Assembly (NCBI GenBank): GCA_035474135.1
Contig: DATINP010000184.1
Location: 9-64,008 of the forward strand
Length of the DNA: 64,000 nucleotides
Source: Chloroflexia bacterium
GTDB taxonomy: Bacteria; Chloroflexota; Chloroflexia; QHBQ01; JADMIH01
Direction: 5' to 3'
Shown: one piece after another, positions 34,070 to 63,314 of the stretch
How positions within the stretch are numbered: the first letter of the stretch is position 1
Layout of the letters: every line of letters starts with the position of its first letter
Made by a program: the position numbers and the translations under genes
The notes under the pieces: model-generated
The model's database searches: none
Told to the model about the DNA's origin: nothing
The model's input: the letters and a program-made list of their open reading frames with translations, nothing else

Positions 34070-34156
34070 GAGTTCTGAGTTCTGAGTTCCGAGTTCTGAG
34101 ATGGCATACGAGCACATTTGGCCTTTAGTGCACTCAGCACTCGGAACTCAGAACTC
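34070..34156. repeat. Inverted heptamer arrays (GAGTTCY)x4 / (RGAACTC)n
   Basis: Arms 34077-34100 and 34133-34156 complementary at 23/24 positions. Confidence 0.9.
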
Positions 34157-34250
34157 GTACATTACGCCGGGCAGGACAAAACGCCCTCCCAGACAGGTAG
34201 GGGCAGTATATCACTGTGCCGAGGGATACGCAATGCAGAGAATCGGCGCT

Positions 34251-36536
34251 CTATCGTTTATCGCTCACCACTCTCGTTGCTCCCCACAGGCACGCCACTG
34301 ATATGAGTACTAAGCCACCCGGCACCAGCACATCCCATATGGCGGGCATGCCCACCGACGCCAGGCTCGGCCTGTAGACCGCAGCGGTCAGGCCGTCCCA
34401 CAGGTATCGCGCCTCTACCAGTATGGCTGAGTTGGCGGGGTCGTACAGCGTGACGCCCTCGCCGGGGTCGCCCGCAAGCAGGAGACCGTAGTTGCGGAAG
34501 TACACCTGGAAGTCCACCATCGTGCCCGCGATATTGATGGCCGTTCCCAACACGCCCAGCGCAATCCACGCTGCTAACAATGTCTGCTTGCCTTTGCTCG
34601 GTTCGTCATTGTGCTCGGCCTCAGTTGCGCGCTCTCTGCCGCAAAAGGCCAGCGCCCACACCATGAGGGGCAATACAGGCACAATCAGCCTCGACCCCCA
34701 GGCAAAATTGCCCGTCCACGCCCACCACATCGCGTTGAAACCGAAGCCCGCCACGATCTCAGCTACGATAAGGCAGGCCACCAACCTGCCCACGCTCTCG
34801 CCGCGTCTGAACATCAACCATAGGCCTATGGGCACGAGGATTAACACGGGGGCGTACAGGAATACGCTCTTGCCGGGGCTAAACAATAGCCCGCCCAACC
34901 CCTCAAGCAGAGGCGTGCTGAACCCCGGCTCCTTCTCGTACCCTGTGCGGAATATCGCGTTGGCAAGAGGCGCGTACCGTATATAGTTGTAGGCGCCCTG
35001 TGCCACCAGCGCGAGGATTGGCCCCACTCCGAATATGGCGATGGCACGGACGATAGCAATACCCGTCGTCAGTCGTCTGTCGTCTGTCGTCCTCCTCCAT
35101 ACCAGCCACAGCACTGCCAATCCCACCGCAGGCCAATAGACCGCGAATGCAGGCTTGAACAGCAACATCGCGCCCAGGCATAGCCCCGACAACAGCAGCC
35201 GCAAGGCGCGTGGAGCCGCCAGGGATTGCCCATCCGGCAAGATCAGCAGTATCGAGGCGAGCAGAAACAGACCGCCCGCAGGCTCGGAAAAGAACGTGCG
35301 CCCGTAGTTCAGCGCGGGCGTAGCCAACAGGTAGGTGGCTGCCACTGCCAGCGATGTGCCCACCGAAGCGAATCGACGCGCCGCCCTGTACAGCAGAAGA
35401 AGGGTGAGCCCGGTCACTATCAGGTTGGTAAAAGAGACCGTCAGGCGCGTAATCCCATCAAGTTCGCCCCCGAGCCACACTCCCACCTTCCCCAGCCAGT
35501 AGAAAGGCACAGCGATCAAGGGTTGCCCGAATCCGTACTTGGTCCACGTCTCGAAGCCGGGATAGCGCGTAGGCCGCCCGTATTCTGCGATGCCTGCCGA
35601 TACCTGATACATACGGTCGGAGTCGAAGGCGTTCATATAGCCCAGGTACAGCAGCACGAGCGCGGCACACAACGTTATCACGATAAGCACAGTGCGCGGG
35701 ATCCGACGAACCCTGGTCTCGTCATGAGCAAGGCGCTCGGACCGCCAGTGGAGCAGCAGCACGAACCCCAGCGCAACGGGTGCGACCCATGCCACGACCG
35801 TTGTCCAAGGGTCGCGGTAGGCCGCGAGAGGACCGTACAGCAGGGGCACACAGGCCCCGGCCAGCATGGAGAACAGGGCGCGCCCTGTGCGTATCCGCAG
35901 AAATGCGTACAAGAGTATGCCCGCCAACCCCAACAGGGCCACCGCCAGCCAGGCGCGCAAACGGGCATAGGGCGCGTAGATTTCCAGCTCTTCTACCAAC
36001 AGACCGAGCGAGCGTCCCTCGCCGGGTGGGCTGTATTCCTGCGACTCCAGCGACGCGTGAGGGCTACCCACGCTCGTGTCGCCCCAGCCCTCCAGCGTCC
36101 ACTCCTGCCCTGGCGTGACGGTTTGCTGAGCGAGCATGGTGCCTTCCAGCTTTAGCGCGATATCACCACCGGCTCCCGCGATTCCCGTCACCTTGACGTG
36201 TATGCGCCCTGGCCCCCAGTTGGGCAGAACCAGTTGGGCCAGCGGCTGGGTCCACCTGTATATGCCGTGCTCGACGTTTTGTTCGGGCGCGTAGAAACCA
36301 TCGGCCAGGTAAACGCGGTCGGCCTCGGTGCCCACCCTCAATTCTTCGTCTGCCGACACGCGCCAGCCCAGCAAGCCCATTACCAATGTGACCAGCAAGA
36401 TCGGCATGGTAAGCAGAATCGCCGCGCGATAGGTGCGAAACGTCACAACGTTGGCACTCCATTTGCTAGACTGTATGTGAGGCGTCGGGCTAGGGGGATT
36501 TGGGGAATCGATCTCGGTTGGCGGCAAGGGCAGCAA
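34251..36536 (-). CDS. Polytopic membrane protein, probable GT-C/PMT-like glycosyltransferase
   Basis: Many TM helices; YARTFFSE-like YGRTFFSEP, GLLFSPGKSVFLYAP, WAWTGNFAWGSR motifs typical of this class; start uncertain (36536 TTG, 36527 TTG or 36446 GTG). Confidence 0.65.
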   Translation of the reverse strand: MLPLPPTEIDSPNPPSPTPHIQSSKWSANVVTFRTYRAAILLTMPILLVTLVMGLLGWRVSADEELRVGTEADRVYLADGFYAPEQNVEHGIYRWTQPLAQLVLPNWGPGRIHVKVTGIAGAGGDIALKLEGTMLAQQTVTPGQEWTLEGWGDTSVGSPHASLESQEYSPPGEGRSLGLLVEELEIYAPYARLRAWLAVALLGLAGILLYAFLRIRTGRALFSMLAGACVPLLYGPLAAYRDPWTTVVAWVAPVALGFVLLLHWRSERLAHDETRVRRIPRTVLIVITLCAALVLLYLGYMNAFDSDRMYQVSAGIAEYGRPTRYPGFETWTKYGFGQPLIAVPFYWLGKVGVWLGGELDGITRLTVSFTNLIVTGLTLLLLYRAARRFASVGTSLAVAATYLLATPALNYGRTFFSEPAGGLFLLASILLILPDGQSLAAPRALRLLLSGLCLGAMLLFKPAFAVYWPAVGLAVLWLVWRRTTDDRRLTTGIAIVRAIAIFGVGPILALVAQGAYNYIRYAPLANAIFRTGYEKEPGFSTPLLEGLGGLLFSPGKSVFLYAPVLILVPIGLWLMFRRGESVGRLVACLIVAEIVAGFGFNAMWWAWTGNFAWGSRLIVPVLPLMVWALAFCGRERATEAEHNDEPSKGKQTLLAAWIALGVLGTAINIAGTMVDFQVYFRNYGLLLAGDPGEGVTLYDPANSAILVEARYLWDGLTAAVYRPSLASVGMPAIWDVLVPGGLVLISVACLWGATRVVSDKR
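35065..35092. repeat. Heptamer array (GTCGTCN)x4 inside a coding sequence
   Basis: Encodes RTTDDRRLTT in frame between two hydrophobic segments. Confidence 0.85.
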
Positions 36537-36793
36537 TCACCTTTCGTCCAAAGTTATGCACAGCCAGGGTATTATATCATCAGGGAGTTGGAACCAAAGC
36601 CGTTCTTGTGTCGTTATTAACCATGTGAATGGCAGAAAATCAGGTTACATGTGGATTTTGTGGTAATTGTATAGTGTTTTGGTATATACTGATACTGAAA
36701 GTCCTCCCGGATATACGCTTAAAATAGTGCCTCTCCATTTACATAATGGGTAATTAAGGTAGGGTTCGAAAGGCCATAAAGGAGTCAAAAGTA

Positions 36794-37900
36794 ATGCTAG
36801 GCAAGGGCGCAATAACATATATATCACATAGAAATAGCAAGAGATTAGCGACTTTCTTCGCCTTGATGCTACTGATAACCACAGCGTGGGGAGCCATGGG
36901 CAGTCCTGCCTCCGCACAAAGCGTGGCCAGATTCGCTCTCCGCAGCACGGTTGCCACGACTGTGCCCACTGATCTGCTGGAGCAACCCTCGGCCAAGGGC
37001 ACATCCCTTGCCCAGTTGCCCGTAAACGCGAAATCCGTAGTGCTGGGTGGGCCATTCAATGAGGGCTGGTACTGGGTTTCGTATAACGCCGCCACGGGCT
37101 ATATAGACGGCAACGACCTGGTGCTCGTAGACGCAAACTGGAAGCCAATTGATAATTCGACTCCCACGCCCGCGCCCAGCGCGACACCTGTAGCTACCGC
37201 CACTCCTGGTGCCGGGGCTACGCCGGAAACGATTCCTACACCTTCAACAGCAGGTGACTACACAGGGCTGTGGCTGGGAGAACTTACCACGGGCGGTAAC
37301 GTGCGTGTTGGTCCAGGCCTCGACCAGAAGATACTCAAGGGTTGGGGAGCAGGTAGGCGCGTGCTCCTGTACCAATCAGCCGTAGACAGCAAGGGCGGCC
37401 TGTGGTATCGCGTGTCCGATCCGCCTGAGGAGCCGCAATGGGTACACTCGAGCCTGATCTCCAAGGTAGCCCCTGTTCAGTTTGACGGACCCAAGTACCA
37501 GGGTAGGTGGGTTGCTGTGAACCTTACCCAGCAGATTGCTACCGCGTATCAGGACGGCACGCCCGTCAAGGTAACGCTTGCCTCTACAGGTACGGTCAGG
37601 ACGCTCCCGAACGGCACCAAAGAAGACCTGCGCACTAACGTGGGCGTGTGGAAGATCTACTGGCGCCTGCCATCTCAGGAGATGAAGGGCGGCTCGATCG
37701 AAAATGGCGACTTCTACGACCTGAAGGACGTACCCTTCGTGCAGTACTTCTACCAGTCGGGGGAGGCCCTGCACGGCACCTACTGGCACGATGACTTCGG
37801 TCGCCCGCACTCTCACGGCTGTGTCAACCTGAGCACTCCGATGGCCGGTTGGTTCTATGACTTCGGCAAGATCGGCACTATAGTCTGGGTGCATTATTGA
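36794..37900 (+). CDS. L,D-transpeptidase (YkuD) with SH3-like domains
   Basis: Signal peptide, WYWVSY and WYRV...WVHS SH3-like segments, ALHGTYWH...SHGCVNL catalytic motif. Confidence 0.92.
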   Translation: MLGKGAITYISHRNSKRLATFFALMLLITTAWGAMGSPASAQSVARFALRSTVATTVPTDLLEQPSAKGTSLAQLPVNAKSVVLGGPFNEGWYWVSYNAATGYIDGNDLVLVDANWKPIDNSTPTPAPSATPVATATPGAGATPETIPTPSTAGDYTGLWLGELTTGGNVRVGPGLDQKILKGWGAGRRVLLYQSAVDSKGGLWYRVSDPPEEPQWVHSSLISKVAPVQFDGPKYQGRWVAVNLTQQIATAYQDGTPVKVTLASTGTVRTLPNGTKEDLRTNVGVWKIYWRLPSQEMKGGSIENGDFYDLKDVPFVQYFYQSGEALHGTYWHDDFGRPHSHGCVNLSTPMAGWFYDFGKIGTIVWVHY

Positions 37901-37915
37901 TAAGTAATTAACTAG

Positions 37916-37951
37916 AAAAGGCCCGTACCTGCTAACCGGTACGGGCCTTTT
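37916..37951. terminator. Rho-independent terminator
   Basis: AAAAGGCCCGTACC / GGTACGGGCCTTTT, perfect 14-bp stem, 8-nt loop. Confidence 0.9.
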
Positions 37952-37965
37952 GCTATTCATCTCCT

Positions 37966-38103
37966 ATGACGAATTTGATTGTCGTTCTCGACCAAGGCGC
38001 GATAATAGGATTCTGTACACATGATGAGCTACTTCTGCGAGCTAGGCCCTATGCTGAACTTTTCAGGATCCAGACCGAACGCTACCGCCAAATTACGCAT
38101 TAG
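37966..38103 (+). pseudogene. 3' remnant of an ABC exporter ATP-binding gene
   Basis: Hand translation MTNLIVVLDQGAIIGFCTHDELLLRARPYAELFRIQTERYRQITH* matches the typical C-terminus (IxVLxxGxIxExGTHxELLxxxxxYAxLFxxQ); the rest of the gene is absent. Confidence 0.7.
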
Positions 38104-38244
38104 AGAGATGCTTTATCACGCCCGCAACTGGACTTAGAGCCACCAAGAGCCGAACCTTTATCATACCCCACGTATAGTTAATATAGGGTACATGATGCAT
38201 TGCACTTCCGCACCTCTAAATTAGCGATGAAATATGGAGGGAGA

Positions 38245-38808
38245 ATGGATGAAAAGAGCGCAATAGCGCAGATGAAGCAAGGGAATATAGATGGATTAGA
38301 AACGATTGTAAAGCGGTATGAGAGCAAAGCAATTGAGACTTCCTACCTAATTAGTCACGATGCTGCTCTCGCTGAGGACATTGTTCAAGCAGCTTTTCTA
38401 CGTGCGTTCGAGCGCATTGGTCAGTTTGACAGCCAACGCTCATTCGGACCGTGGTTCTTGAGGAGTGTGATCAACGATACGCTCCGAGCACTCGAGCGTG
38501 GTAGTCATATCTTGGGGAACATAGACACACTTGATCAGCACGAGCTTGAGCGCCTTGCTAGTGCCAAGGATGATCTCTATGACGAACTAGAAGCAGCAGA
38601 AACGAAGGATGAAATATTGTTAACCCTATCTCGTTTATCGCCGGTTCAGCGTGCTGCTATTGTGTTACGCTATTATCTTGACTTAAGCGAAATTGAAATG
38701 GCTCAGATGCTTGATTGCCCCAAGGGAACAGTCAAGCGGCGCTTGCATGATGCACGCAAGAACCTGCGCCAATTGCTCCCAAAGTGGATCAGACAGACAG
38801 GCGAATAG
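38245..38808 (+). CDS. ECF sigma factor
   Basis: LAEDIVQAAFLRAF, FGPWFLRSVIN, LSPVQRAAIVLRYY...EIAQML...GTVKRRL pattern; GGAGG before ATG 38245. Confidence 0.92.
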   Translation: MDEKSAIAQMKQGNIDGLETIVKRYESKAIETSYLISHDAALAEDIVQAAFLRAFERIGQFDSQRSFGPWFLRSVINDTLRALERGSHILGNIDTLDQHELERLASAKDDLYDELEAAETKDEILLTLSRLSPVQRAAIVLRYYLDLSEIEMAQMLDCPKGTVKRRLHDARKNLRQLLPKWIRQTGE

Positions 38809-38866
38809 TCATACGTCTTGTATCAAAGGAAACTACAAATGCGGGTTTCGACCGGAAGGAGAAAAA

Positions 38867-39745
38867 GTGACTAAAGAACTAATTCGAGAAGCGTTACAAG
38901 ACTTTGTCGATGAAGGAGTATCCTTACATAAATCTCTGTGGGCCTCGACACGTGAACAGCTACGTTCTGAGCTGGTACCTGGAATCACACGTAGCAAAAG
39001 AGCTGTAAGTCCGGGTGGCCCTCTGTCTGTGTTTCGTCCTAAACTGAATATATCGGCTATTCTTGTCTTGTTGTTAGGCTTTGCTGCATTCGCGACATTC
39101 TTCGCAACACGCAACACTACTCAGGCACCCGATTCACTGTCAAGTCCGAATGCTGTAGCCGCGCTGCAAGGGAATCCGATAAGCCAAGCGGTCAATGGCT
39201 ACACGGTCACCCTTTACCCTTCATATGCACCTGAAGGATGGTTGAGTCTTTCTTATATTGTCATCGATGGACAGGGGCACAAACTCCCGTTATTCGACTT
39301 AACAGAAAATGGCTTGTATGTCAACTATGGCAACAATACAATGGAGGATGCAACAAAGCCTAATTTGGTTGACGCTGAAGGACATAGCTATCCGGTAATC
39401 GGCGTAGGCCCAAGTTTTGCCTGGTCAAATCCTACGCAGGATACACAGAAGGTTCCAATTACTGATCTTGATGCGCACAGAATTGAGGGTGGACAAGGTA
39501 AGGGGGCATGCTGCCTCGCCGACGCTGATGTAGTAATGTGGAATTTTGATCCGCTATCGAATGTCACTCAGGACACCACCCGCAATATGCACTTGGAGAT
39601 CACAGTGTTCTTGCCCGAAGACGCGCTACAAGCCAAACCCAATGAAAGCGAGAACACCTCTGGGATCATAAACTTGCAATCGCTGAACTATAAGGACACA
39701 GTAGAATCGCGTCTCGCATTCGACTTCAGCCTTCCATCGAAATAA
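38867..39745 (+). CDS. Putative membrane-anchored anti-sigma factor
   Basis: Follows the ECF gene; short cytoplasmic N-terminus, one TM helix (ISAILVLLLGFAAFATFF), extracellular domain; AAGGAG before GTG 38867. Confidence 0.6.
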   Translation: MTKELIREALQDFVDEGVSLHKSLWASTREQLRSELVPGITRSKRAVSPGGPLSVFRPKLNISAILVLLLGFAAFATFFATRNTTQAPDSLSSPNAVAALQGNPISQAVNGYTVTLYPSYAPEGWLSLSYIVIDGQGHKLPLFDLTENGLYVNYGNNTMEDATKPNLVDAEGHSYPVIGVGPSFAWSNPTQDTQKVPITDLDAHRIEGGQGKGACCLADADVVMWNFDPLSNVTQDTTRNMHLEITVFLPEDALQAKPNESENTSGIINLQSLNYKDTVESRLAFDFSLPSK

Positions 39746-44479: not shown

Positions 44480-44731
44480 ATGGCAAAAGTAGTAATAATT
44501 CACGTAGTAGGTGACGACCCGCTCATTGCCGAGATAGAGGAATTACCTAAACCGACCGACCAATTCATCGAGTTCACGAATCCCAAGCGCAGGGACGGCA
44601 AGGCCATCCCCTACGTGACCCAGGGTGCAAAGTCCTTCATGTTCCCCTGGCACCGCCTCACGTTCATAGAGGTTATGACCACTGACACAGAGCGCCAGGA
44701 AACGATAGAGTTCTTCCGCGAAGAGCGCTAG
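44480..44731 (+). CDS. Small hypothetical protein (83 aa)
   Basis: Strong SD AGGAGG, protein-like composition, directly after the kinase. Confidence 0.75.
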   Translation: MAKVVIIHVVGDDPLIAEIEELPKPTDQFIEFTNPKRRDGKAIPYVTQGAKSFMFPWHRLTFIEVMTTDTERQETIEFFREER

Positions 44732-44740
44732 CCGGGGACG

Positions 44741-44790
44741 GACGACAGACGACAGACGACGTACAGCTATGTCGTCTGTCGTCTGTCGTC
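44741..44790. repeat. Perfect 20-bp inverted repeat built from (GACGACA)n / (TGTCGTC)n
   Basis: 44741-44760 is the exact reverse complement of 44771-44790; 10-nt loop. Confidence 0.92.
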
Positions 44791-44809
44791 TATGTTATGA
44801 TAGCAGTAG

Positions 44810-51849: not shown

Positions 51850-52350
51850 ATGCTTGAGAAAGCCCTACAGGGAGCACGTCTCCTTTATGCCTACACGCTC
51901 TTTATTGACGCGCCCCTGGATACTGTGTTCACCTACACAGGTAACCCTGACTACTGGACGCGCGACTTCAAGGGTGACCCATTACCGCGTCTGGCGCTTA
52001 CCTGGGAGGGCAGGCGCAACCAACCCGGCTCGATCATGACCCTGTCGGCCAGAAGGAAGGACGACACGATTTCGACAGTGGGCGGCGTGCGGATGGAGTT
52101 GATCCATTATGCCCCACGCGAGGAGATCACCTACCGCTATCTGGTGGGCAACCACCTGATATACAGGTTCGTATACGAAGCCGTTTCGCCCACGCGCACC
52201 GAGTTTACCGTGAATGTGCTGGTGGACGCCCAAAGCCCTTTCCTGAACACATTGAGGCAGCGTCTCTATGCCCGCAAGCGCCGCAAGGCCTCCATAGCCG
52301 ACCACTTTCGCGTGAAAGGCATCCTGGAGGACAGAGCGAGCCGTAGATAG
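51850..52350 (+). CDS. Hypothetical SRPBCC-like protein
   Basis: FIDAPLDTVFTYT N-terminal pattern typical of SRPBCC folds. Confidence 0.55.
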   Translation: MLEKALQGARLLYAYTLFIDAPLDTVFTYTGNPDYWTRDFKGDPLPRLALTWEGRRNQPGSIMTLSARRKDDTISTVGGVRMELIHYAPREEITYRYLVGNHLIYRFVYEAVSPTRTEFTVNVLVDAQSPFLNTLRQRLYARKRRKASIADHFRVKGILEDRASRR

Positions 52351-52356
52351 TAGTAA

Positions 52357-52500
52357 TACGTCATGCGTCATACGTCATGCGTCGCATATTAACTTAATGA
52401 CGCAAGCATGCCAAAATGGGACAGGTTTTGTGTAGTCCATTCGGGTACATTTCCGGACGACGCATGACGTATGACTCACGATCTACGATCTACGATCCGC
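52357..52500. repeat. Heptamer arrays flanking copy C of the 71-bp element; 18-bp perfect inverted repeat (52367-52384 / 52458-52475)
   Basis: GTCATACGTCATGCGTCG and CGACGCATGACGTATGAC; the right array continues as six GA-phased units to 52500. Confidence 0.88.
52390..52460 (+). repeat. 71-bp dispersed element, copy C
   Basis: 61/71 identical to copy B by hand alignment. Confidence 0.9.
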
Positions 52501-53312
52501 CCTTTGATCCCGAACACCTCGGCGACTGCGCTTAGTTCCTCAGGCGTCAGGCCATCAGCCTGGCTGTGGGCGACCAGGTCCATGTACTCGTAGTGGGCAG
52601 CGGCTTCGGCGTACTCTATTATGTCGGCGGCGCGCACAGCCGAGATGTCAGAGCGTGCCATTACGCCGTGTTTGCTCCACAGCACAAGGTTATGGTCGCG
52701 CAGCCCTGCCACCGTAGTATCCATGAGAGCGTGAGAGCCGGGCAACAGAAAGGGCAGCACGCACACCCCGTCCGGTAGCTCGACAATCGTCTCGGGCTGC
52801 CAGCGCAACAGCCTCCGGTTGAACACAAGCTGGTCGCGATAGGCCGGAATATGACTGAGGTAGACCATGTTGGGCGGTTGGGCGTGCACGAGGGCCTGAA
52901 AGTTGGTGCCGGTGCGTGCGACCGCATCCTGGTGTGCGGCCAGGTGCGAATTGAACTCACTCGTGATGCGCGTGAATAGGCGTCGCGGCGATGTGAATAG
53001 CTGGGCGCTCAGCCCGCCCGGATCGACCACGATAGCACCGAGGTTCCCCTCCGGGTCGGCCTCGATATCCCGCAGGCGGCGGCCCGAGCCTGTCACCAGC
53101 ACCGTCTTGCCGGCCAGCGCAGGCGCGGGTTGTGGCAGGTCGATCTGCTCAGCTTGTGAGAAGCGCTGTTGCACGTCGAGCGGCCACCCGGCATAGACCG
53201 AGATGTTGCCCGCCGCGCCTTCAGTCGCTTTTATCTCGTTGAGGCGTTGGCCCGCTTCGCCTATAGAGGCGATTAGCTCGTCCAGGCCGGGGTAAGGTTG
53301 CGTTAGGGGCAT
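52476..53312 (-). CDS. Class II aldolase/adducin-family protein (RhaD-like)
   Basis: EGAAGNISV, TGSGRRLRD, TSEFNSHL, VHAQP, LVLWSKHGV. Confidence 0.8.
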   Translation of the reverse strand: MPLTQPYPGLDELIASIGEAGQRLNEIKATEGAAGNISVYAGWPLDVQQRFSQAEQIDLPQPAPALAGKTVLVTGSGRRLRDIEADPEGNLGAIVVDPGGLSAQLFTSPRRLFTRITSEFNSHLAAHQDAVARTGTNFQALVHAQPPNMVYLSHIPAYRDQLVFNRRLLRWQPETIVELPDGVCVLPFLLPGSHALMDTTVAGLRDHNLVLWSKHGVMARSDISAVRAADIIEYAEAAAHYEYMDLVAHSQADGLTPEELSAVAEVFGIKGRIVDRRS

Positions 53313-53319
53313 GGCGTTG

Positions 53320-55043: not shown

Positions 55044-56008
55044 ATGCACGAACAGCTTACAGAGGAATACATCCGCAAAGTATGGGCCGAACTTGGTGCC
55101 CATGTCAGGCCCACCACGTTTCAGAGCACCCTGCTATTGGACCGGGCGCTAGGGGCCGAGGTAACGGTTGCCAGCGAAACATTGCAGATCACAGGCAGTT
55201 TCAAGTTTCGGGCTGCTTACAACCTCCTGCGTGACGTGGAGACCGAGAGTGTGATTACCACCTCGTCGGGCAACTTCGGGCAGGCGGTAGCCTATGCCTG
55301 CATGCTGTTGGGTAAGAGTTGCACGGTGCTGATGCCCGCCAATTCGTCCAAAACCAAGCAGGCAAATATCCGTGCCTACGGAGGCGAGGTCGTACTGATC
55401 GACACCGCGACCAAGAGCAGGATGCTTTACACCACCGAGATACTAACCGAACACCCCGACGCTTTTACGCCCCACCCTACGACCACTACCGCGTGGTGGC
55501 GGGCAACTCAACGCTGGGCAGGGAGATATTCGAGCGGTTCGGGCCGGACGGCATAGATTATGTGCTGTGTCCCGTGGGTGGTGGAGGGCTTATTTCTGGC
55601 ATCATCCTCGCTCGCGACCTTCTAGCGCCCGACGTGGAGGTAGTGGGAGTCGAACCTTTGCTGGGCAACGATGCAGCGCGCTCTTTGCGGTCGGGCGAAC
55701 TGGTCACGCTTGATTCGGAGCCTGCAACGATGGCCGACGGTACGCGCACGCCCAGCGTGGGCAACCTCAACTGGGAGATCATACGCGGAGGGTTGCGCCG
55801 GATAATAGAGGTGCCGGAGGATCTGATAGCCGAGGGTCTACGCACTCTATATGCCAACGCCAATCTGAAAGTAGAGCCGACCGGCGCGCTGACAATAGGC
55901 GCGATGCTCACTCAGCCAGGCGTATTCGCGGGTAAGCGCGTATGCTGCATAGTAAGCGGCGGCAATGTAGACGCCGACGTGTACGTGAAAGTGCTTCGCG
56001 AGTCATAG
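55044..56008 (+). pseudogene. PLP-dependent serine/threonine dehydratase-family gene split by a 1-bp frameshift (or a sequencing error)
   Basis: First frame carries TGSFKFRAA (PLP Lys) and SSGNFG; second frame carries PPYDH, PVGGGGLISG, ADG, VEPTGA, SGGNVD. Frames join near 55463-55480; restoring 1 nt gives 321 aa. Confidence 0.85.
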
Positions 56009-56085
56009 ATCTTAGATCTTAGATCATAAGTCGGACGGCAGGAGACGCATGACTTACGATCTAAGATCTAAGATCTACGACTCGT
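56006..56085. repeat. Inverted heptamer arrays (TAGATCT)n / (GATCTAA)n holding both convergent stop codons
   Basis: Arms 56006-56032 and 56051-56077 complementary at 26/27 positions. Confidence 0.92.
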
Positions 56086-58026
56086 CACCGCTTCGCGGTC
56101 GCTCGCCTCGTTCAGCGCGAGGACGGGCAGGGTAAAATAGAACGTGGTGCCTTTGCCGAGTGCGCTCTGCACTCCAATTCGTCCGCCCATGGCTTCCACC
56201 AGCGCTTTCGCAATGGCCAGGCCCAGGCCGGTGCCTGTGTTCGCGCCATCGCCCTTCATTTCCACGCGATAGAACTTGTCGAAGATATGGGGCAGGTGTT
56301 CGGGTGCAATGCCTATCCCATTGTCCTTGACGTAGACCGTAACGCTGGAGGTGCCGTTTCGGTCGCCTTGATACTCCGCATTTACCTCTATCGTGTCGGC
56401 CTGCGAATACTTGGCCGCGTTTTGCAACAGGTTCATCAACACCTGTTCCAGGCGGCGAGGATCGGCCTCTACAATGGGCAACTTATCTTCAATGTGGCAC
56501 TCGAACTTCGCGTGCGGGTAGTGCTTGCTTATGCGCGTAATCACTTCGCCGCAGTAGCGCCACAGGAGCACGTGTTCAGGCATTATCGGCAGCCGACCGC
56601 CCTCAATACGTGTCATCTCCAGCAGGTTCTCGACCAGATCGGTCAGCTTATCGCTCTCGTCCGAGATAATATCGAGGAACTCGCGCCGGGTCTGGTTGTC
56701 CCAGTGAGTATCGCCCGACAGGAGAGTACGTGAATAGCCTTTGATGCTGGCGAGGGGCGTGCGCAGTTCGTGCGACACCATAGACATAAAGTCGTCTTTC
56801 AGCTTGTTAGCCTCTCGCAGGGCGGTGGTCTCGGCGGTTTCAGCGATCAACCAGGTATTTTCTATTGCAATAGCCAATTGGTCGGCGACACCTTTCACTA
56901 TTTCGGCATCTTGGGTGCTAAAGGCCTGCTTTCCATGCGCGGTGATGGCTATGAGGCCCAGCCTGCGTTCGCCCAGCTTGATGGCCACCAGCAAGAGCGA
57001 TCCCGCGCCTTTTGCCGCCAGTGCGAGCACGTCGGGTTCGTTCATAGAGGCAGTGTCGCCGGACACGAACGTGTCGTTGTTGTTAAGCAACTGAGTGGCA
57101 CATTCCACGCTCAGTTCTGCCTGGATGCGGTTGCCGCTGTCGCCTGTGGCAGGGTCGCTGCTCGCCGCGTACACCGTATCGAGCAGTTCGCCGTTTTGCT
57201 CATCAAGCAGGCCGATGCTCGCGCCATTATTGGGGAGAATACGATCTATGCCGCGCAATGCGGTCTGAAATACCTCGTCCAGGTCGAGCGCAGATTGATT
57301 GATCGAACGTGCAAGCTCATTGACAACCTGCAAGCGAGCGGCTTTGCGCTGGGTATCAGCAAGCAGTATAGCGTTTTCGCGTGCCTGATTGGTGATCCTC
57401 TGCGAGGCCGAGCGCACCAGGGTGAACAGGGAAACGTAGAGGAACGAAAAGCCGAACAGGATGCTTACCCAGAGGAATTCGGTGCTGTTGTTGATGCGTT
57501 CGCGCAGGTCGGTGATGTCATAATAACCCTCGAACGCGCCCACTATCTCAGACTTGCCTCCCTGCCTGATAGGCGTGTAGACCTCCAGTAGCTCGCCAAA
57601 ACCCCGTTCTTCAACATTCTCGGCCTTGTTCAGGTCCGAAAGGTCAGCAACAGTAAGGCCTGTGAGCGTTTCTTGCAGGTCATCTGTCCACGGGAACGTC
57701 TGACCGACCAGGGTGGGATCGTCGGAATATACCACCATACTGTCGCGGTTCCATATCTTCACCCTCACCAGACCGGACCCACCCAGGCTGGAGAGAGCCA
57801 GCTCGATCTCTTTGTAACTGGCACCGTGAGCGCCGTTCGCCAGCACGTCGTCCGTGATGTGGTCGCCGATGATGGGCGGCACGAGGTCGCGGATTGCGTC
57901 GCGCTGTTGGTTGATGGCGGCTTGCTGGAAGTAGTTGGTCAGATTCCAACCCAGCAAAATGCCGATGCCAACCATGAGCACCAGACTTATGATCGAGAAC
58001 TGGAGCAAGAGGGTGACGCGCTTCAT
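56068..58026 (-). CDS. Membrane sensor histidine kinase with a GAF domain
   Basis: Two TM helices, GAF region, SHELRTPL H-box, NLLQNAAKYS, DNGIGI, GTGLGLAI. Confidence 0.95.
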   Translation of the reverse strand: MKRVTLLLQFSIISLVLMVGIGILLGWNLTNYFQQAAINQQRDAIRDLVPPIIGDHITDDVLANGAHGASYKEIELALSSLGGSGLVRVKIWNRDSMVVYSDDPTLVGQTFPWTDDLQETLTGLTVADLSDLNKAENVEERGFGELLEVYTPIRQGGKSEIVGAFEGYYDITDLRERINNSTEFLWVSILFGFSFLYVSLFTLVRSASQRITNQARENAILLADTQRKAARLQVVNELARSINQSALDLDEVFQTALRGIDRILPNNGASIGLLDEQNGELLDTVYAASSDPATGDSGNRIQAELSVECATQLLNNNDTFVSGDTASMNEPDVLALAAKGAGSLLLVAIKLGERRLGLIAITAHGKQAFSTQDAEIVKGVADQLAIAIENTWLIAETAETTALREANKLKDDFMSMVSHELRTPLASIKGYSRTLLSGDTHWDNQTRREFLDIISDESDKLTDLVENLLEMTRIEGGRLPIMPEHVLLWRYCGEVITRISKHYPHAKFECHIEDKLPIVEADPRRLEQVLMNLLQNAAKYSQADTIEVNAEYQGDRNGTSSVTVYVKDNGIGIAPEHLPHIFDKFYRVEMKGDGANTGTGLGLAIAKALVEAMGGRIGVQSALGKGTTFYFTLPVLALNEASDREAVTSRRS

Positions 58027-58736
58027 TTGCCCTCTCTTGGTATCTGGAACCTATAGCCGAAGCCCGGCTCGGACATAATGAACTGGGGAGTGGAGGGATC
58101 GGGTTCGAGCTTTTGGCGCAGCGACCTTATATAGACCCACAGATAGCCTGTTTCGTCGCGGTACTCGGGCCCCCACACCTTGGACAGGAGATCGGCATGT
58201 GGTATCACTTTGCCCGCCTGTTGCGCGAGTTGTTGCAAGAGTTTGTACTCGGTGGGTGTGAGCTTTATCTGATCGCCGTTGTACTCTACTTTGTGCTTGA
58301 GAAAATCGATAGTGAGGCCGCCTGCCTGGATAATATGCCCACCGGTTGTATCGCCGTTGGCCGAGGCATTGCTGCGCCGCAACAGGGCACGCACTCTTGC
58401 TACCAGTTCTTCGGGGTCGAAGGGCTTGGTGATATAGTCGTCGGCGCCCAGTTCCAGGCCGTGCACCTTCTGCGATTGCTCGCCCATCGCAGTCAGGAAG
58501 ATGATCGGCACATTTGACGCTTCGCGCACGCGCTGAGTGAAGGTGAAGCCGTCCATGCCGGGCATGGTCACGTCGACCACTATAGCATTTGGTTCTTCCA
58601 GGTCGAACTGTTCCAGGGCCGCCGCCCCGCCCGAAGCGGTGCTAACAACAAACCCGGCTTTTTCCAGGTTGACTCGCACCAGCCGTAAGATACGCGGGTC
58701 GTCGTCTACGACAAGTATGTTTTGTTTGGGTTGCAT
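58023..58736 (-). CDS. OmpR-family response regulator
   Basis: ILVVDDD, VVDVTMPGMDG, GADDYITKPF, LTPTEYKLL, PGFGYRF; AGGAG before ATG 58736; overlaps the HK start by 4 nt. Confidence 0.95.
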   Translation of the reverse strand: MQPKQNILVVDDDPRILRLVRVNLEKAGFVVSTASGGAAALEQFDLEEPNAIVVDVTMPGMDGFTFTQRVREASNVPIIFLTAMGEQSQKVHGLELGADDYITKPFDPEELVARVRALLRRSNASANGDTTGGHIIQAGGLTIDFLKHKVEYNGDQIKLTPTEYKLLQQLAQQAGKVIPHADLLSKVWGPEYRDETGYLWVYIRSLRQKLEPDPSTPQFIMSEPGFGYRFQIPREGK

Positions 58737-58911
58737 TATTCTCCTGACGACACGCGACAGACAAGGAACTACGGTGGATGCTGTTTGCAATTCGTAAGTT
58801 GCGTTCCAGCTTTAATAATACGTAGATAGGTAACAGAGTGCAACGGGTGGCTAGTGGTTGGTTATACCCCGCACTACTTGATGGCTAATATCTGATGTAT
58901 GGGTAGACCGC

Positions 58912-59865
58912 CTACAACATTAAGGTCGTACCCACACTGGACGCGACGAATGCGTCAGGCATCTCGACCGCGATGCGCTGTACCGCCCGCCAGCCCGTGC
59001 AGTGCCCCGGCATCACGCACGCAGGCCCGATGGCCTTCAGCGCGGCCACTGTCGGCTCGATAAATGGCTCGAACCCCGGTCCGGTCAGATGGAACCCACC
59101 TATCACGGCGTACACTTTATCAATTCCGGTAATCCTCTGCGCATTCCTCACCACATTGATAACCCCCGCATGCCCACACCCCGACACCACCACCAGCCCT
59201 TTCCCCGCCACGTTCACAATCGCACACTGGTCGTCGTGGATCAGCGGGTCGGCTTCCCAATGGTCGTGACGCCACGACTGGTGTCCGGCCAGCCCGCGCT
59301 CAAACTCGGTCGTCCGAACCACCTCCCCCGAAATCAGGACCATCCCGTCCACCATCATCGACGGCCCGACCTCCTCCACGATCTCCACCCCCATCCGCCT
59401 CAAGTCCGCTTTGTTCGGTGGGGGCCATTGCAACTCCATCCCGCTCGGTAGCACCAATCTCCTCTGCAAGAACGCATCCGGGTGTAGGATTAATGGCATT
59501 CCCACCCTACCCAGCCGCTCCACCAACCCCGGCAGGCCCATCGCGTGGTCCGGGTGCCCATGACTCAAAATGATAGCCTGCACATCATGCGCGTCGACCT
59601 CCATCACATCCATGTTGTATAGGATCCCCTGTTTGCTTACCCCCGTATCAAACATCAGCTTGCCTGAACTCTCCCCCTTCTGCACCTCGATCAATGCCGA
59701 GAAACCATGCTCGGCTATCGGCAACGGATGCTCGAACAGATCGTTCCGCAGTTTGAATCGCCGCGCCACCGCCGATCCCACCATCAGGATGTCGACCGAG
59801 TTGTCACACAATATCGAAACGTTGACCGAATCCACTTCCGCCAACGGGATAACTTCAGTTCCCAT
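58912..59865 (-). CDS. MBL-fold metallo-hydrolase (COG1237-like)
   Basis: AEHGFS, MFDTG, LSHGHPDH, DDQ, SGCGHAG, GGFHL, PGHCTG. Confidence 0.9.
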   Translation of the reverse strand: MGTEVIPLAEVDSVNVSILCDNSVDILMVGSAVARRFKLRNDLFEHPLPIAEHGFSALIEVQKGESSGKLMFDTGVSKQGILYNMDVMEVDAHDVQAIILSHGHPDHAMGLPGLVERLGRVGMPLILHPDAFLQRRLVLPSGMELQWPPPNKADLRRMGVEIVEEVGPSMMVDGMVLISGEVVRTTEFERGLAGHQSWRHDHWEADPLIHDDQCAIVNVAGKGLVVVSGCGHAGVINVVRNAQRITGIDKVYAVIGGFHLTGPGFEPFIEPTVAALKAIGPACVMPGHCTGWRAVQRIAVEMPDAFVASSVGTTLML

Positions 59866-60095
59866 CTCTCATACCTCCTATGAAATCGCTACCACCGTTT
59901 CAACTAGGTCGCCAGTCGTTTGCTCCCGCTGACAGGATTGGCTCTCTCTCCAAAGGCTCTTTCATGCCAACCATTTTACCGGATATTAGCCGTCCACGGA
60001 TAGAGGTATTGTCAGGCAGCTTACTACCAATAACGGATGACGTATGGCGTGTGACATCCTTGTTTGCCGTTGTTATTGCTAACCCATCGACACTT

Positions 60096-60112
60096 CTTAA
60101 GGCCATCTTAAG
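60096..60112. promoter_or_regulatory. CTTAAG-N5-CTTAAG direct repeat (11-bp period); candidate OmpR-family binding site
   Basis: Read directly in the divergent intergenic region between the MBL/RR/HK genes and the ECF sigma. Confidence 0.45.
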
Positions 60113-60239
60113 GGTGAACAGGTCTATTTCAGGCGATTCTCAGGGGCGCGTCTGTATGATACGGTCAGAACACAATGTATATGACCACGCGGCACGGGTC
60201 GTATCGGGCAAGAGCGCAAAACAGAAAGGCGTATAGACC

Positions 60240-60857
60240 ATGAACTCGACTTCAATATCCACGACTCAAACTAGGGCTTCATCGAATTTGTTTGGAGCCG
60301 CCGAGACCAGAACTAACGTTGCCAATGCTGCTGTAGACCGCAAAAGCGCGCTTCAGGCTATTTACGATACCTATGTAGAGCAAATATACAGGTTCATCTT
60401 TTTCAAGGTGGGCAACCGCGAAGATGCCGAGGATATTGCCTCGCAGGTATTCATTAAGGCTGCCAATTCACTCGACGTGACTCAGAACCGGCAGGCCCAG
60501 GTGGCCTGGTTGTACCAGGTAGCCCGCACTACCATAAGTGATCACTGGCGCGGCTACTACAAGGGCGTGACCACCAGCCTCGATGAGATGGAAGAGAGCA
60601 GCCCGCTTCACCTGGCCAGCGACCCCGTGTTTCTGGGCGGGCAGGAGAGCGACGACGTCGAGCCTGCGGTCGAGAAGGTGCGGGCTGTACTTTCCCTACT
60701 GCCTGAGAACTACCGTCGCGTCCTGGAACTGCGCTTCCTTCAGGGTTGCTCCCTGCGCGAAACGGCTGCCGCCATGCTCATCACCGAATCGAACGCCAAA
60801 GTCATCCAGCACCGCGCCATACAGAAGGCACTCAAGGTAGGCGCACAGCTTATTTAG
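60240..60857 (+). CDS. ECF sigma factor
   Basis: IYDTYVEQIYRF, DAEDIASQVF, WLYQVAR, LPENYRRVLELRF...ETAAAM...AKVIQHRA. Confidence 0.92.
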   Translation: MNSTSISTTQTRASSNLFGAAETRTNVANAAVDRKSALQAIYDTYVEQIYRFIFFKVGNREDAEDIASQVFIKAANSLDVTQNRQAQVAWLYQVARTTISDHWRGYYKGVTTSLDEMEESSPLHLASDPVFLGGQESDDVEPAVEKVRAVLSLLPENYRRVLELRFLQGCSLRETAAAMLITESNAKVIQHRAIQKALKVGAQLI

Positions 60858-60879
60858 GGGCCAGGGTTATTGGGTTGGG

Positions 60880-60919
60880 GAAGGACTGTTGCCGGCTGAT
60901 GGTAGCAGTCCTTCTTTTT
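60880..60919 (+). terminator. Rho-independent terminator
   Basis: GAAGGACTGTTGCC / GGTAGCAGTCCTTC stem (two G-U pairs) followed by TTTTT. Confidence 0.8.
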
Positions 60920-60943
60920 GTAATAGATTCGCAACATTTGTTC

Positions 60944-60972
60944 TTGACCATATAGAACGACCTATTTATAAT
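60944..60972 (+). promoter_or_regulatory. sigma70 promoter TTGACC-N17-TATAAT for the osmoprotectant ABC operon
   Basis: -35 at 60944-60949, -10 at 60967-60972. Confidence 0.8.
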
Positions 60973-61183
60973 CAAGTGTGGTCTAATTCATGCTATGGTT
61001 TAACGGTTCGCTTCTAACTTCGGGCTGCATTAGTTGGGCGTAAGACTGAATATTTGTCCTTTCAACCCAGGACCACTCTCCGAGCGTTGTATTCTATGTG
61101 ACCTGTTCACCGTTGTTGCTGATCCCCTACGCTCGATCTAATAATGTGCTGAGTTTCGCACACAATCCAAATGGAGGAACTTC

Positions 61184-62224
61184 GTGAAGAAAAGTCTATT
61201 GGCTATCGTGATGCTCACAATTCTGAGCTTACTTCTATCCGCGTGTGGGGCCGACCCCACCGCTACCGTGGTGCCACCCACCGCCACGACTGCTGCGGCA
61301 CCGACTGCTACAACTGCAATGGCGGCGTCTACCGCCACGACTGCAATGGCAGCACCGACCGCTACCTCTGCCGGGACAGGCCAGACACCTGCGGCAGGCC
61401 GCAAGGTCGTCGTTAGCTCCAAGAACTTCACCGAGGAGTTCATACTGGGCGAGATATATGCACTGGCGCTCGAGAATGCAGGAGTGCCTGTAGAGCGCAA
61501 GCTGAACCTGGGCGCGTCGGACCTGGCGCAGGCTGCACTGCTGAAAGGCGGGGATGCCGGTGGTATCGACCTCTACCCCGAGTACACAAGCACAGGCCTC
61601 ACGGTCATATTGGGAGCCGATCCCATCTATGATCCGCCTGCGGTGTATGATGCGGTCAAGAAGGGCTACGAAGACCAGTACAAACTGACATGGTTGGACT
61701 CGTCGCCCATGAATGACACACAGGCTTTCGTGATGACGAAGGACAACTCCGAGAAGCTGGGTATCAAGAGTCTTGCTGATATGTGCAGCAAGGCCAATAC
61801 TCTTACTCTATCGGCCATCGCAGAGTTCAAGGATCGCCCTGATGCCTACCCGCGCCTCCAGTCAGTATATGGAGATTGCAACTTCAAGGACATCAAGTCG
61901 ATGGATCCCAGTCTCTTCTACACCACGCTAATGAACGGCGACGTAGATGTGACGCAGGCGTTCAGCACCGACGGCCCCATCTCGGGCAACGGCCTCGTAC
62001 TGTTGGACGATCCCAAGAACTACGGTTTGCCGTATAATGTGGCCCCCGTCGTGCGCGACGATGTGCTTGCTATGTACCCACAGATCAGCACCACCCTTAA
62101 CGCTCTGGCTCCCAAGCTCACGAACGATGTTATATCGTCCCTGAACTGGGAGGTTGATGGCAAGAAACGCGACTATCAGGACGTGGCCAAAGAATGGATG
62201 CAGCAGCAGGGCCTGATCAAATAG
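61184..62224 (+). CDS. Osmoprotectant (glycine betaine/choline-type) ABC transporter substrate-binding lipoprotein
   Basis: Lipobox LLSAC, Thr/Ala linker, SKNFTEEFILGE, IDLYPEYT, FSTDG. Confidence 0.9.
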   Translation: MKKSLLAIVMLTILSLLLSACGADPTATVVPPTATTAAAPTATTAMAASTATTAMAAPTATSAGTGQTPAAGRKVVVSSKNFTEEFILGEIYALALENAGVPVERKLNLGASDLAQAALLKGGDAGGIDLYPEYTSTGLTVILGADPIYDPPAVYDAVKKGYEDQYKLTWLDSSPMNDTQAFVMTKDNSEKLGIKSLADMCSKANTLTLSAIAEFKDRPDAYPRLQSVYGDCNFKDIKSMDPSLFYTTLMNGDVDVTQAFSTDGPISGNGLVLLDDPKNYGLPYNVAPVVRDDVLAMYPQISTTLNALAPKLTNDVISSLNWEVDGKKRDYQDVAKEWMQQQGLIK

Positions 62225-63195
62225 TGTCTGCGCCTGCTATCGTTTTCGAGCACGTTAGCAAAAGTTTCCCCGGCTCTACTCTCCCCGCTATCGACGACGT
62301 ATACCTGGAGGTAGAGCCGGGTAACTTTGTGGTGTTGTTCGGGCCTTCGGGCTGCGGCAAAACCACGCTCATGAAGATGGTCAACCGTCTCTACGAGCAT
62401 GATTCGGGACGGGTACTGGTCGAAGGGCGGGAAGCACGAAGCTTCAAGATCACAGACCTGCGCCGCCGCATCGGCTACGTGATCCAGAGCACAGGGCTGT
62501 TCCCCCACATGACGGTGGCCGAGAATATAGCGGTTGTGCCTGACCTGCTCAATTGGGACAAGGCACGCACCAGCCGCCGAATTGACGACCTGCTTGAGTT
62601 GATCGGGCTGTCGCCGCAGGAGTACCGCAATCGCTATCCGGGTCAGTTGTCGGGCGGGCAGCAGCAACGTGTGGGCCTGGCGCGGGCCATGGCTGCCGAT
62701 CCCTCGATCATGCTCATGGATGAGCCTTTCGCCGCTATAGACAATATTACGCGGCGCAGGCTACAGGACGAGCTACTTAGGATACAGAGTGTGGTTCGCA
62801 AGACGATCCTCTTTGTTACGCACGACATCGAAGAGGCGATACGGCTTGCTGACAAGATCGCGGTCATGCGATTAGGCAAAGTCGTGCAGTACGATACGCC
62901 CCTGAACATCCTTTCAAACCCGGCTGACGAGTTCGTGGCCGATCTCGTTGGCTCAGAAGACGTGTTGCGCCGTCTGTCCCTGTTGAGTGTGCAGTCGGTC
63001 ATGTCACCCCTACGTGAGGGTGCGGGGTCCCAGCCCGACTCGTCCACACTGCCGGTGGATGCAACCCTGCGTGATGCCCTGGGCGTCCTCCTCTCAGCAG
63101 ACACCGACGCTCTCACCATAGTGAGCGAACAGGGCCAACCCGTAGGCACGCTCAGTTTGGACGCGATCAAGAAAGCCACTCACCACGAGGAGTGA
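62224..63195 (+). CDS. Osmoprotectant ABC transporter ATP-binding protein with a CBS domain
   Basis: GPSGCGKTT, LSGGQQQRV, LMDEPF, VTHD; GTG 62224 overlaps the upstream TAG. Confidence 0.93.
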   Translation: MSAPAIVFEHVSKSFPGSTLPAIDDVYLEVEPGNFVVLFGPSGCGKTTLMKMVNRLYEHDSGRVLVEGREARSFKITDLRRRIGYVIQSTGLFPHMTVAENIAVVPDLLNWDKARTSRRIDDLLELIGLSPQEYRNRYPGQLSGGQQQRVGLARAMAADPSIMLMDEPFAAIDNITRRRLQDELLRIQSVVRKTILFVTHDIEEAIRLADKIAVMRLGKVVQYDTPLNILSNPADEFVADLVGSEDVLRRLSLLSVQSVMSPLREGAGSQPDSSTLPVDATLRDALGVLLSADTDALTIVSEQGQPVGTLSLDAIKKATHHEE

Positions 63196-63314
63196 CCAGT
63201 GGTGAGTGACCAGTGACCAGTGACCAGTGACCAGTGACCAGTAGGACGACCGTCGAACCGCTTATCACTGAGCACTTGTCACGTCTGGTCACTGGTCACT
63301 CACCACTGGTCACT
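63191..63314. repeat. Inverted heptamer arrays (AGTGACC)n / (GGTCACT)n with perfect 29-bp arms
   Basis: 63191-63219 is the exact reverse complement of 63286-63314, including the variant unit. Confidence 0.93.

Follow-up and report, generated by a model that had tools for sequence, protein, structure and literature searches.

Among the long simple repeats of many bacteria, those with a heptanucleotide unit are the most over-represented. Cyanobacterial arrays of this type, the short tandemly repeated repetitive (STRR) sequences, were reportedly described by Mazel and colleagues in 1990. In Xanthomonas and Nostoc, repeats of GGGAATC and GGGGAYT are found as convergent inverted pairs, their lengths varying between species and the repeat type being preserved (Rehm et al. 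2015, PMC4692102). Heptamers also occur in intervening sequences (IVS) of 23S rRNA genes: the Coxiella IVS contains an S23p (PF05635) open reading frame (ORF) together with tandem GACAGAT heptamers, which differ in number from strain to strain, and its 28-bp terminal stem is a target of RNase III (PMC4990558). Here, we analysed a 64,000-nt stretch of DNA (the window; C184:9-64008) from a Chloroflexia metagenome-assembled genome (MAG; 4.03 Mb, 58% GC, hereafter G000), in which an earlier note had pointed out five inverted repeats built from heptamer arrays. A cyanobacterial origin of G000 was rejected, as the genome lacks phycobilisome genes. These hairpins 1 to 5 (34059-34174, 44737-44791, 52352-52481, 55999-56084 and 63188-63315, none assigned to a strand) are probably members of genome-wide composite fold-back elements, cargo-less relatives of S23p/IVS-type cassettes.

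The G000 arrays resemble STRR sequences and the Xanthomonas and Nostoc heptamers in their 7-nt units, their mostly intergenic position and their number of several hundred per genome, and both the excess of period 7 and the convergent inverted orientation of the Xanthomonas-type pairs were found in G000. Whereas the Xanthomonas and Nostoc systems have one G-rich unit, G000 has approximately 20 unit families, a nested grammar and conserved non-repeat termini, and G-quadruplex formation, on which the Xanthomonas and Nostoc study focused (PMC4692102), is inapplicable to most G000 units. The elements share with the ORF-bearing 23S IVS of Coxiella burnetii and Leptospira (PMC4990558) a long near-perfect terminal stem, as well as border heptamers and an S23p gene in the loop, an arrangement seen at both S23p genes of G000 and at 26 of 31 loci in the order. 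Unlike these IVS, the five window hairpins are devoid of a gene and can thus be no more than derivatives of S23p cassettes; they are located in mRNA spacers and not in helix 25 or 45 of the 23S rRNA, and the RNase III cutting known for the Coxiella IVS is a prediction in their case. Heptamer-repeat hairpins are a known kind of element, of which those described here form a grammar-rich variant specific to this lineage. Their tie to the IVS protein family was seen repeatedly but is unpublished, and we found no paper linking the PF05635 family with heptamer repeats in general.

Heptamer hairpins recur throughout the genome and follow a fixed grammar

Analysis of G000 with Tandem Repeats Finder detected 938 arrays of period 7, compared with 171 arrays with a 6-nt period and 107 with an 8-nt period. 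The period-7 set contained 911 non-overlapping arrays belonging to about 20 main unit families. Neighbouring arrays with the same unit formed 106 inverted pairs and only 2 direct pairs; a reverse-complement partner was present within 150 nt of 312 of the 911 arrays, a direct partner in 18 cases. Genome-wide, 227 hairpins were defined, 222 of which were used for analyses at the unit level. Hairpin density was similar in co-directional (0.47 per kb) and convergent (0.53 per kb) spacers but dropped to 0.11 per kb in divergent ones. According to the crude codon-usage gene calls made for the present analysis, the outer hairpin edge was separated from the upstream stop codon by a median of 2.5 nt and from the following start codon by a median of 20 nt, and several stop codons sit within arrays. 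No target-site duplications were detected, the direct repeats (k = 2-9) at the borders of 221 hairpins being at or below the shuffled expectation. This result makes the cut-and-paste insertion of a classical miniature inverted-repeat transposable element (MITE) unlikely, and assignment of the hairpins to classical MITEs was rejected on this ground.

The polarity of the arms was fixed in each family. Among 194 hairpins from families with at least 3 members, no exception was found (34/34, 28/28, 24/24, 15/15, 14/14, 13/13, 11/11 and so on; P ~1e-53 under a 50:50 expectation), and inspection of the left-arm units revealed no simple base-composition rule for this polarity. The order of adjacent arrays was one-way as well (12:0, 7:0 and 6:0), and the termini were conserved, as in CGAGTC...GACTCG and GTAAGTC...GACTTAC. 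Composite elements combined these features: one type was written as [C]GAGTC-(NTAGATC)n-GTAAGTC, (ATGCGTC/ATACGTC)n(GGTCGTC)n, GACTTAC-(GATCTAN)n-GACTC[G], and another as (RGTGACC)n-AGTAG-(GACGACN)n ... (CTTATCA)n-TACT-(GGTCACY)n. The two arms showed no correlation in unit number (r = 0.10), and arms with equal counts were no more frequent in the real hairpins (30%) than after permutation within families (29%). Together, the shared words, the fixed polarity and order and the uncorrelated unit counts indicate that a hairpin begins symmetric and that its arms then drift separately.

Mirrored variants are mostly words shared between loci

The earlier note had claimed that odd units in one arm are copied in the opposite arm, which independent slippage would not bring about. 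A genome-wide count agreed with this claim: 360 of the 739 variant units with an aligned partner were mirrored, as compared with about 80 expected from family-wide variant frequencies. Mirroring so far above chance cannot be explained by independent slippage of the two arms. The note had further proposed template switching or fold-back copying as the origin of the arms, and this second proposal was retained for a small number of hairpins but not as the main cause. We looked for the words surrounding each variant, using interior stem columns only and 13-mers, for which the chance expectation is about 0.1 per genome; 15-mers were used too. As many as 130 of the 144 interior mirrored variant columns were part of 13-mers recurring at other loci, the 14 strictly private columns being confined to 10 hairpins. 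Among unmirrored columns, 149 were in shared words and 66 were private, so that strictly private changes were far more often unmirrored (66) than mirrored (14). The arms were also as similar between loci as within a hairpin: the alignment score was 20.8 between loci of one family and 20.7 between the two arms of one hairpin, with 59% and 64% of the variant columns in common, respectively. The variant units of all five window hairpins recur at other loci. Collectively, these data indicate that the mirrored odd units are mostly stock words of a genome-wide repeat family and not the products of local mirror-copying.

Evidence for local copying was obtained at C210:14792, where the left terminus of the element (CGAGTTG) mirrors its right flank (CAACTCG), a flank that exists without the element in the closest relative genome compared (G015). 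Together with the 14 mirrored columns that are private, this terminus indicates that copying from arm to arm takes place, but rarely. Such copying is a minor contributor, needed for only about 10 of the 222 hairpins, and most of the mirroring has another source.

The symmetry of the stems does not carry an RNA-level signature

The window hairpins were predicted to form highly stable RNA folds (-44 to -91 kcal/mol, with z-scores between -4.7 and -11.5 relative to shuffled sequences). Selection for a long RNA stem, the other cause put forward in the earlier note, was not supported by stem mismatches: reading co-directional spacers on the sense strand, we counted 36 G:U and 58 A:C mismatches. The lack of a sense-strand G:U excess is the opposite of what selection on the RNA predicts. 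An effect of the hairpins on RNA is possible, but it did not shape their symmetry.

A scan of the four hairpins in the 44-64 kb region for terminators flagged only hairpin 2 (44741), with a weak tail; the other three had no U-tract. Intrinsic (rho-independent) termination, which requires a GC-rich stem followed by a U-tract, was therefore rejected for this set. No Rfam family matched the hairpins, and no RNA run was found to contain the sequence. A gene for RNase III is present in G000.

S23p genes are framed by heptamer arms

G000 contains two PF05635 genes; both lie between protein-coding genes and both are framed by inverted arrays of abundant families. The intact gene (C76:37348-37770) encodes a TIGR02436 protein, the nearest solved structure being 2GSC from Xanthomonas. 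It has a perfect TAGATC-type hairpin on each side (C76:37278-37356 and C76:37783-37863), and these two hairpins are 84-88% identical to hairpin 4 (55999) over approximately 85 nt. Upstream of the PF05635 gene, a full hairpin is found in G000 and a single arm in G015. The second gene (C251:39629-40027), which has one TGA within the Pfam match, occupies the loop of (GACGACC)n ... (GTCGTCN)n. The neighbours of this element (C251:39534-40057) are putative grpE and dnaK genes, judged from their termini without a family search, and the cassette would thus be held in the spacer of a heat-shock operon.

The association was also found beyond G000. Loci were scored by the best inverted repeat between two 260-nt flanks, with a score of at least 14 taken as a pass and windows shifted by 1 kb used as controls. 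In the order, the sample comprised 31 PF05635 loci from 29 genomes; 26 of them passed, compared with 1 of 55 shifted controls (Fisher 6e-16), and their arms were nearly all tandem heptamers, the unit varying by genome. In other phyla, we sampled 34 loci from named genomes, including Planctomycetota, Verrucomicrobiota, Bacteroidota (cultured Pedobacter), Gammaproteobacteria (Alcanivorax) and the candidate phyla radiation; 20 passed, mostly with period 7, as compared with 0 of 63 controls (5e-12). Pooling both sets, 1 of 118 control windows passed the test.

Units of the window hairpins were themselves encountered next to S23p genes. The GAGTTCC/GAGTTCT unit pair of hairpin 1 also forms arms around PF05635 genes in genome G021 and in a Chloroflexota MAG, and the second PF05635 gene of G015 has an AGTGACC array, the type found in hairpin 5, at a distance of 24 nt. 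Because the same heptamer arms bracket a PF05635/TIGR02436 four-helix-bundle gene, we read the window hairpins as cargo-less relatives of these cassettes. A similar proximity exists in Xanthomonas campestris, where GGGAATC array no. 15 (622956-622983) overlaps the annotated start of XCC0516 (supplementary table of PMC4692102). XCC0516 is the PF05635 protein of PDB entry 2GSC, and the overlap is uncommented in Rehm et al. (PMC4692102).

Period and architecture are stable in the genus, vocabulary is not

G015, the closest relative compared, has flanking genes 77-82% identical to those of G000; an exact-protein look-up for strain-level relatives yielded no match. Its array density is the same (211 per Mb; densities of other genomes were calculated from samples), and several families are common to both genomes, with the same polarity. 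The termini GACTTACGATCT and GATCTACGACTC are present in both. Inner words were species-specific: GATCTAAGATCTA, with 215 occurrences in G000, was absent from the 0.31 Mb of G015 that were sampled, and GATCAGCGACTTAC was found 13 times in this G015 sample but never in G000. Among 96 orthologous spacers, period-7 tracts were found in both genomes in 11 cases, only in G000 in 12 and only in G015 in 4.

Individual spacers revealed how these differences are distributed. In the spacer of hairpin 4, between genes for a PALP-family protein and a histidine kinase, and at C76:37263, both genomes have a TAGATC-type hairpin with the same termini and inner units that differ in both arms; in the C76 spacer the short loop is 11/13 identical between the two species, and both arms are different. 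The site of hairpin 4 contains no element in the more distant genus members compared. The spacer at 44741 harbours GACAGAC repeats in G000 and an AAGAATT-type hairpin in G015. In the spacer at 63191, a (GCGATAA)2...(ACTTATC)3 hairpin is all that G015 contains, and G000 retains remnants of G015-type arrays inside newer AGTGACC arms. A further genome of this comparison, G013, reaches 260 arrays per Mb; its units all differ from those of G000, and polarity is likewise fixed per family. The comparison of relatives therefore indicates that period and architecture are stable in the genus and that the vocabulary turns over.

In the sampled genomes, array density tracked the number of PF05635 copies, but not cleanly. 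The highest density (550 period-7 arrays per Mb) was found in G003, with 9 copies, and G000, G013 and G015, with 2 copies each, have 211-260 arrays per Mb. Genomes without a copy included G008 (38 per Mb, no recurrent unit) and G016 (16 per Mb), both from the same genus, and G040 (40 per Mb); G026, with 1 weak hit, had 70 per Mb, consisting of GC-rich low-complexity units only. G011 and G018, also with 0 copies, reached 237 and 170 per Mb, in small samples from MAGs that are 77% and 79% complete, respectively.

An assembly artefact was ruled out as a source of the hairpins. At the 63191 locus, independent Logan contigs (run X1) cover 62900-63600 with 0 differences; Logan contigs of the G000 sample tend to end at heptamer arrays. 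The artefact was rejected because independent contigs agree and relatives from other studies share the architecture.

Relation to other dispersed repeats and to template switching

The elements were compared with repetitive extragenic palindromes (REPs), the bacterial interspersed mosaic elements (BIMEs) and REP doublets forming hairpins (REPINs) built from them, and the REP-associated tyrosine transposases (RAYTs) (Di Nocera et al. 2013, PMC3733652). Both are dispersed extragenic palindromes found after genes in co-directional or convergent spacers, and both combine a fixed polarity and a mosaic build with a single-copy gene flanked by its repeats (PMC3733652). The arms differ, being variable tandem arrays in G000, whereas a REP is a fixed palindrome of 20-40 bp. 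A likeness to REPs and BIMEs had been suggested in the earlier note; it held for placement and mosaic build but did not extend to membership of a RAYT/REP system. The single PF01797 Y1 transposase gene of G000 (C268:6763-7104) is flanked by its own, unrelated GTAG REPs. This RAYT-like gene and the classical GTAG REPs around it (GTAGCCCGCGACTTCAGTCGCCGGGCGG; C268:6600-7400) form a repeat system independent of the heptamers. The GTAG REPs have 24 copies in the genome, show no heptamer structure and often occur as inverted pairs about 130 nt apart, in a REPIN-like arrangement.

As in MITEs, arms of the gene-less hairpins (TAGATC-, GACGAC- and, in G015, AGTGACC-type) are shared with gene-carrying elements, here those with PF05635; the gene is no known transposase. 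Short-range template switching at quasipalindromes is established in bacteria, and one event can make perfect stems (PMC8794818, PMC7202029). The process studied by Mönttinen and Löytynoja (2022) and by the Lovett laboratory would explain how both arms come to agree at once, even in multi-base changes. It fits the C210 terminus as well as the approximately 10 hairpins in which private changes are mirrored, but leaves the words shared between loci, the fixed polarity and the species-specific vocabulary unexplained.

Origin of the heptamer hairpins

The shared vocabulary, the fixed polarity and grammar and the turnover between species indicate that the hairpins of G000 are not products of local slippage. 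We propose that each arm is a short array of 7-nt words in tandem and that both arms are written in one family vocabulary and grammar. A hairpin would be symmetric from the outset, and mirrored variants would correspond to multi-unit words common to many loci. Later, each arm would change alone by slippage and point mutation, and occasional arm-to-arm template switching would mend or lengthen the stem, in a process operating on DNA and not through selection for mRNA pairing. The elements extend from the stop codon to within about 20 nt of the following start codon. Where they are transcribed, they would form perfect stems of 18-34 bp; as described for IVS stems and REPs, such stems would be expected to be cleaved by RNase III and/or to protect the 3' end. 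Spread and homogenisation without target duplication could involve template switching between loci, gene conversion or another activity in which S23p perhaps takes part.

A more specific version of this model gives the protein an active role. In this version, which we regard as tentative and on balance doubtful, the heptamer hairpins would be non-autonomous PF05635 cassettes, and the S23p pentamer would recognise the arrays in trans and drive their spread and homogenisation, in a manner similar to REPIN-RAYT systems but without a known nuclease. If this were true, the heptanucleotide excess in bacteria, the species-specific vocabularies and the function of the IVS protein would be explained together. 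The S23p link joins these three unexplained things and can be tested in cultured carriers of both partners, such as X. campestris (XCC0516 and GGGAATC arrays).

Several observations weigh against our interpretation of the hairpins as cargo-less fold-back elements. No movement was observed, no enzyme candidate was found and there was no target-site duplication (k = 2-9). The closest relative is merely 77-82% identical, and for this reason no clean pair of filled and empty sites was available. The association with S23p has no direction, and the cassettes could simply settle in pre-existing hairpins. G011 and G018, which are incomplete MAGs without a PF05635 hit, have 237 and 170 arrays per Mb in their small samples. 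Finally, local copying of arms is required for the C210 terminus and for the 10 hairpins whose mirrored changes are strictly private.

These last cases argue for a purely local origin, in which slippage would make the array and intrastrand template switching (fold-back or quasipalindrome correction) would copy it, variants included, to form the second arm, symmetry being kept locally. Essentially no strictly private mirrored columns are expected by chance, and 14 were found in 10 hairpins; the C210:14792 terminus mirrors a flank that G015 has without an element; the hairpin upstream of the PF05635 gene is complete in G000 and a single arm in G015; and the mechanism, by which one event produces a perfect stem, is established in bacteria (PMC8794818, PMC7202029). 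We nevertheless consider a local origin quite improbable, since 90% of the mirrored variants are words shared with other loci, arms are as similar between loci as within a locus, arm lengths are uncorrelated and private changes are mostly unmirrored (66 to 14). Polarity fixed without exception is equally unexpected if copying ran to either side. Fixed polarity also argues against RNA-stem selection, according to which a function as terminator, stabiliser or processing site would keep the arms complementary and mirrored variants would be compensatory substitutions: a stem with swapped arms would pair equally well. The very stable predicted stems (-44 to -91 kcal/mol), the placement just past stop codons, the 4-5 times lower frequency per kb in divergent spacers and the RNase III substrates formed by IVS stems of like build (PMC4990558) are in keeping with such a function. 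As a cause of the symmetry, however, RNA-stem selection appears very unlikely: sense-strand mismatches are 36 G:U and 58 A:C, three of the four hairpins scanned at 44-64 kb lack a U-tract and no Rfam family matches. Moreover, multi-base words such as GACC to GGTG would need several paired changes, each arising independently, yet they are identical at other loci.

An explanation in which nothing ready-made is inserted is that dispersed arrays are rewritten in place, by genome-wide homogenisation through gene conversion between them or by a templated 'writer'. This would account for orthologous spacers of G000 and G015 that keep the position and termini of the element and have species-specific inner words, for the C76 loop (11/13 identical between species, both arms differing), for the lack of target duplications and for hairpin 5, which at 63191 retains remnants of G015-type arrays inside newer outer arms. 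Arrays of 20-40 nt are short for RecA-type conversion, though, and no writer enzyme was identified. The conserved short C76 loop may be a family feature, because a similar loop is found at a second G015 locus, and the unrelated families occupying one spacer in the two species (44741) look like replacement and not editing. Rewriting in place is therefore unlikely in our view, and composite fold-back elements related to the S23p cassettes remain the explanation that we consider probable.

Gene context of the window hairpins

All five inverted repeats pointed out in the earlier note were read directly in the sequence and found again by a repeat finder. Three had the extent given there (34077, 44741 and 52367), as specified below, and the other two were longer than described; the gene contexts reported, between an ATP-binding cassette (ABC) ATPase and a permease and between a small ORF and a glycosyltransferase family 9 (GT9) gene, were also correct.

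Hairpin 5 has arms made of (AGTGACC)7.4 (63191-63242) and (GGTCACT)4.4 (63285-63315), which form a perfect inverted repeat of 30 bp (63191-63220 / 63285-63314), rather than the 29 bp first reported, with GGTGAGT in both arms. It occupies the entire spacer between the ABC ATPase and permease genes, the TGA stop codon of the ATPase gene (63193-63195) being located in the first unit, and its predicted fold is the most stable of the set (-91 kcal/mol). The interior (63243-63284) contains GACGACC and CTTATCAC remnants. The 17-mer ACCAGTGGTGAGTGACC, which includes GGTGAGT, was found only here and in the hairpin at C48:12616, in both arms each time, and the interior of the C48:12616 hairpin has the module order of hairpin 5 in the opposite orientation.

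Hairpin 4 is a TAGATC-type composite, CGAGTC-(NTAGATC)3-NTAAGTC, followed by an 18-nt loop and GACTTAC-(GATCTAN)3-GACTCG. The note had described it as 56006-56077 with 26/27 positions paired; the stem extends to 55999-56032 / 56051-56084, with 32/34 paired and a predicted fold of -54 kcal/mol. The element lies between the convergent PALP (55319-56008, plus) and histidine kinase (56068-58026, minus) genes, whose stop codons (56006-56008 and 56068-56070) are within its arms, and its border words occur 9 to 163 times in the genome. As the ABC ATPase, PALP and histidine kinase genes all terminate within first repeat units, the elements supply or overlap the ends of genes. For annotation, this means that the elements define gene ends and fill operon spacers; they probably also set points of mRNA processing.

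Hairpin 2 consists of (GACGACA)n and (TGTCGTC)n arms forming a perfect stem of 20-24 bp with a loop of 4-10 nt: 20/20 positions are paired at 44741-44760 / 44771-44790, and 24 bp in the RNA fold (-44 kcal/mol). It begins 6 nt past the stop codon of the small ORF 44480-44731, and 19 nt separate its end from the ATG of the GT9 gene (44810). The 20-mer arm has 42 occurrences in the genome.

The arms of hairpin 1, (TGAGTTC)n at 34069-34100 and (GAACTCA)n at 34132-34156, form a core stem (34077-34100 / 34133-34156) with 23/24 positions paired, in which GAGTTCC is mirrored as GGAACTC. The predicted fold is -46 kcal/mol, and further copies of the variant word TGAGTTCCGAGTTCT were found at C70, C143, C201 and C206. 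The neighbours of this spacer are a PMT_2-type glycosyltransferase gene (34251-36536, minus) and a gene for a ComM/Mg-chelatase-like ATPase (32508-34052, minus). The AACTCAG family, which includes window positions 34069-34100, is strand-biased, in contrast to other families: genome-wide, CTCAGAA-type units are on the sense strand by 14:3 in co-directional spacers and by 12:0 within gene calls.

In hairpin 3, CGTCATG and CGTCATA units alternate in the arms (52352-52384 / 52454-52481), and 18/18 positions are paired in the stem (52367-52384 / 52458-52475), an 18-mer also present at C106, C161 and C221. The hairpin is placed between convergent genes (51850-52350, plus, and 52476-53312, minus), and an (ACGATCT)n array at 52478-52497 (no strand assigned) adjoins it, overlapping the 3' end of a class II aldolase gene. 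The arms surround a conserved core of 66-70 nt (about 52387-52456). This core is a dispersed sequence with at least 40 genome copies of 81-92% identity, usually bordered by CGTCAT/GCATGAC-type words, and may represent a small nested element or the gene of a small RNA. Two further copies are present in the window, one at 15488-15561 on the minus strand, flanked by TAGATC, CGTCAT and CACGTAT words, and one at 12165-12238 on the plus strand, with GCATGAC words after the copy.

Other repeats in the window

A further heptamer hairpin, with (GGACGAC)n and (GTCGTCC)n arms, is located at 8137-8215 (no strand assigned), outside the range covered by the earlier note. A tandem repeat of 27 nt (2.6 copies, 75% matches) was detected at 61295-61365, inside the ORF 61184-62224. 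Near the end of the ORF 20401-22509 (minus), positions 20334-20371 form a spacerless, near-perfect palindrome of 38 bp (GGTATTGTGTATACAGTAT / ATACGGTATACACAATACC), which may be a protein-binding site.

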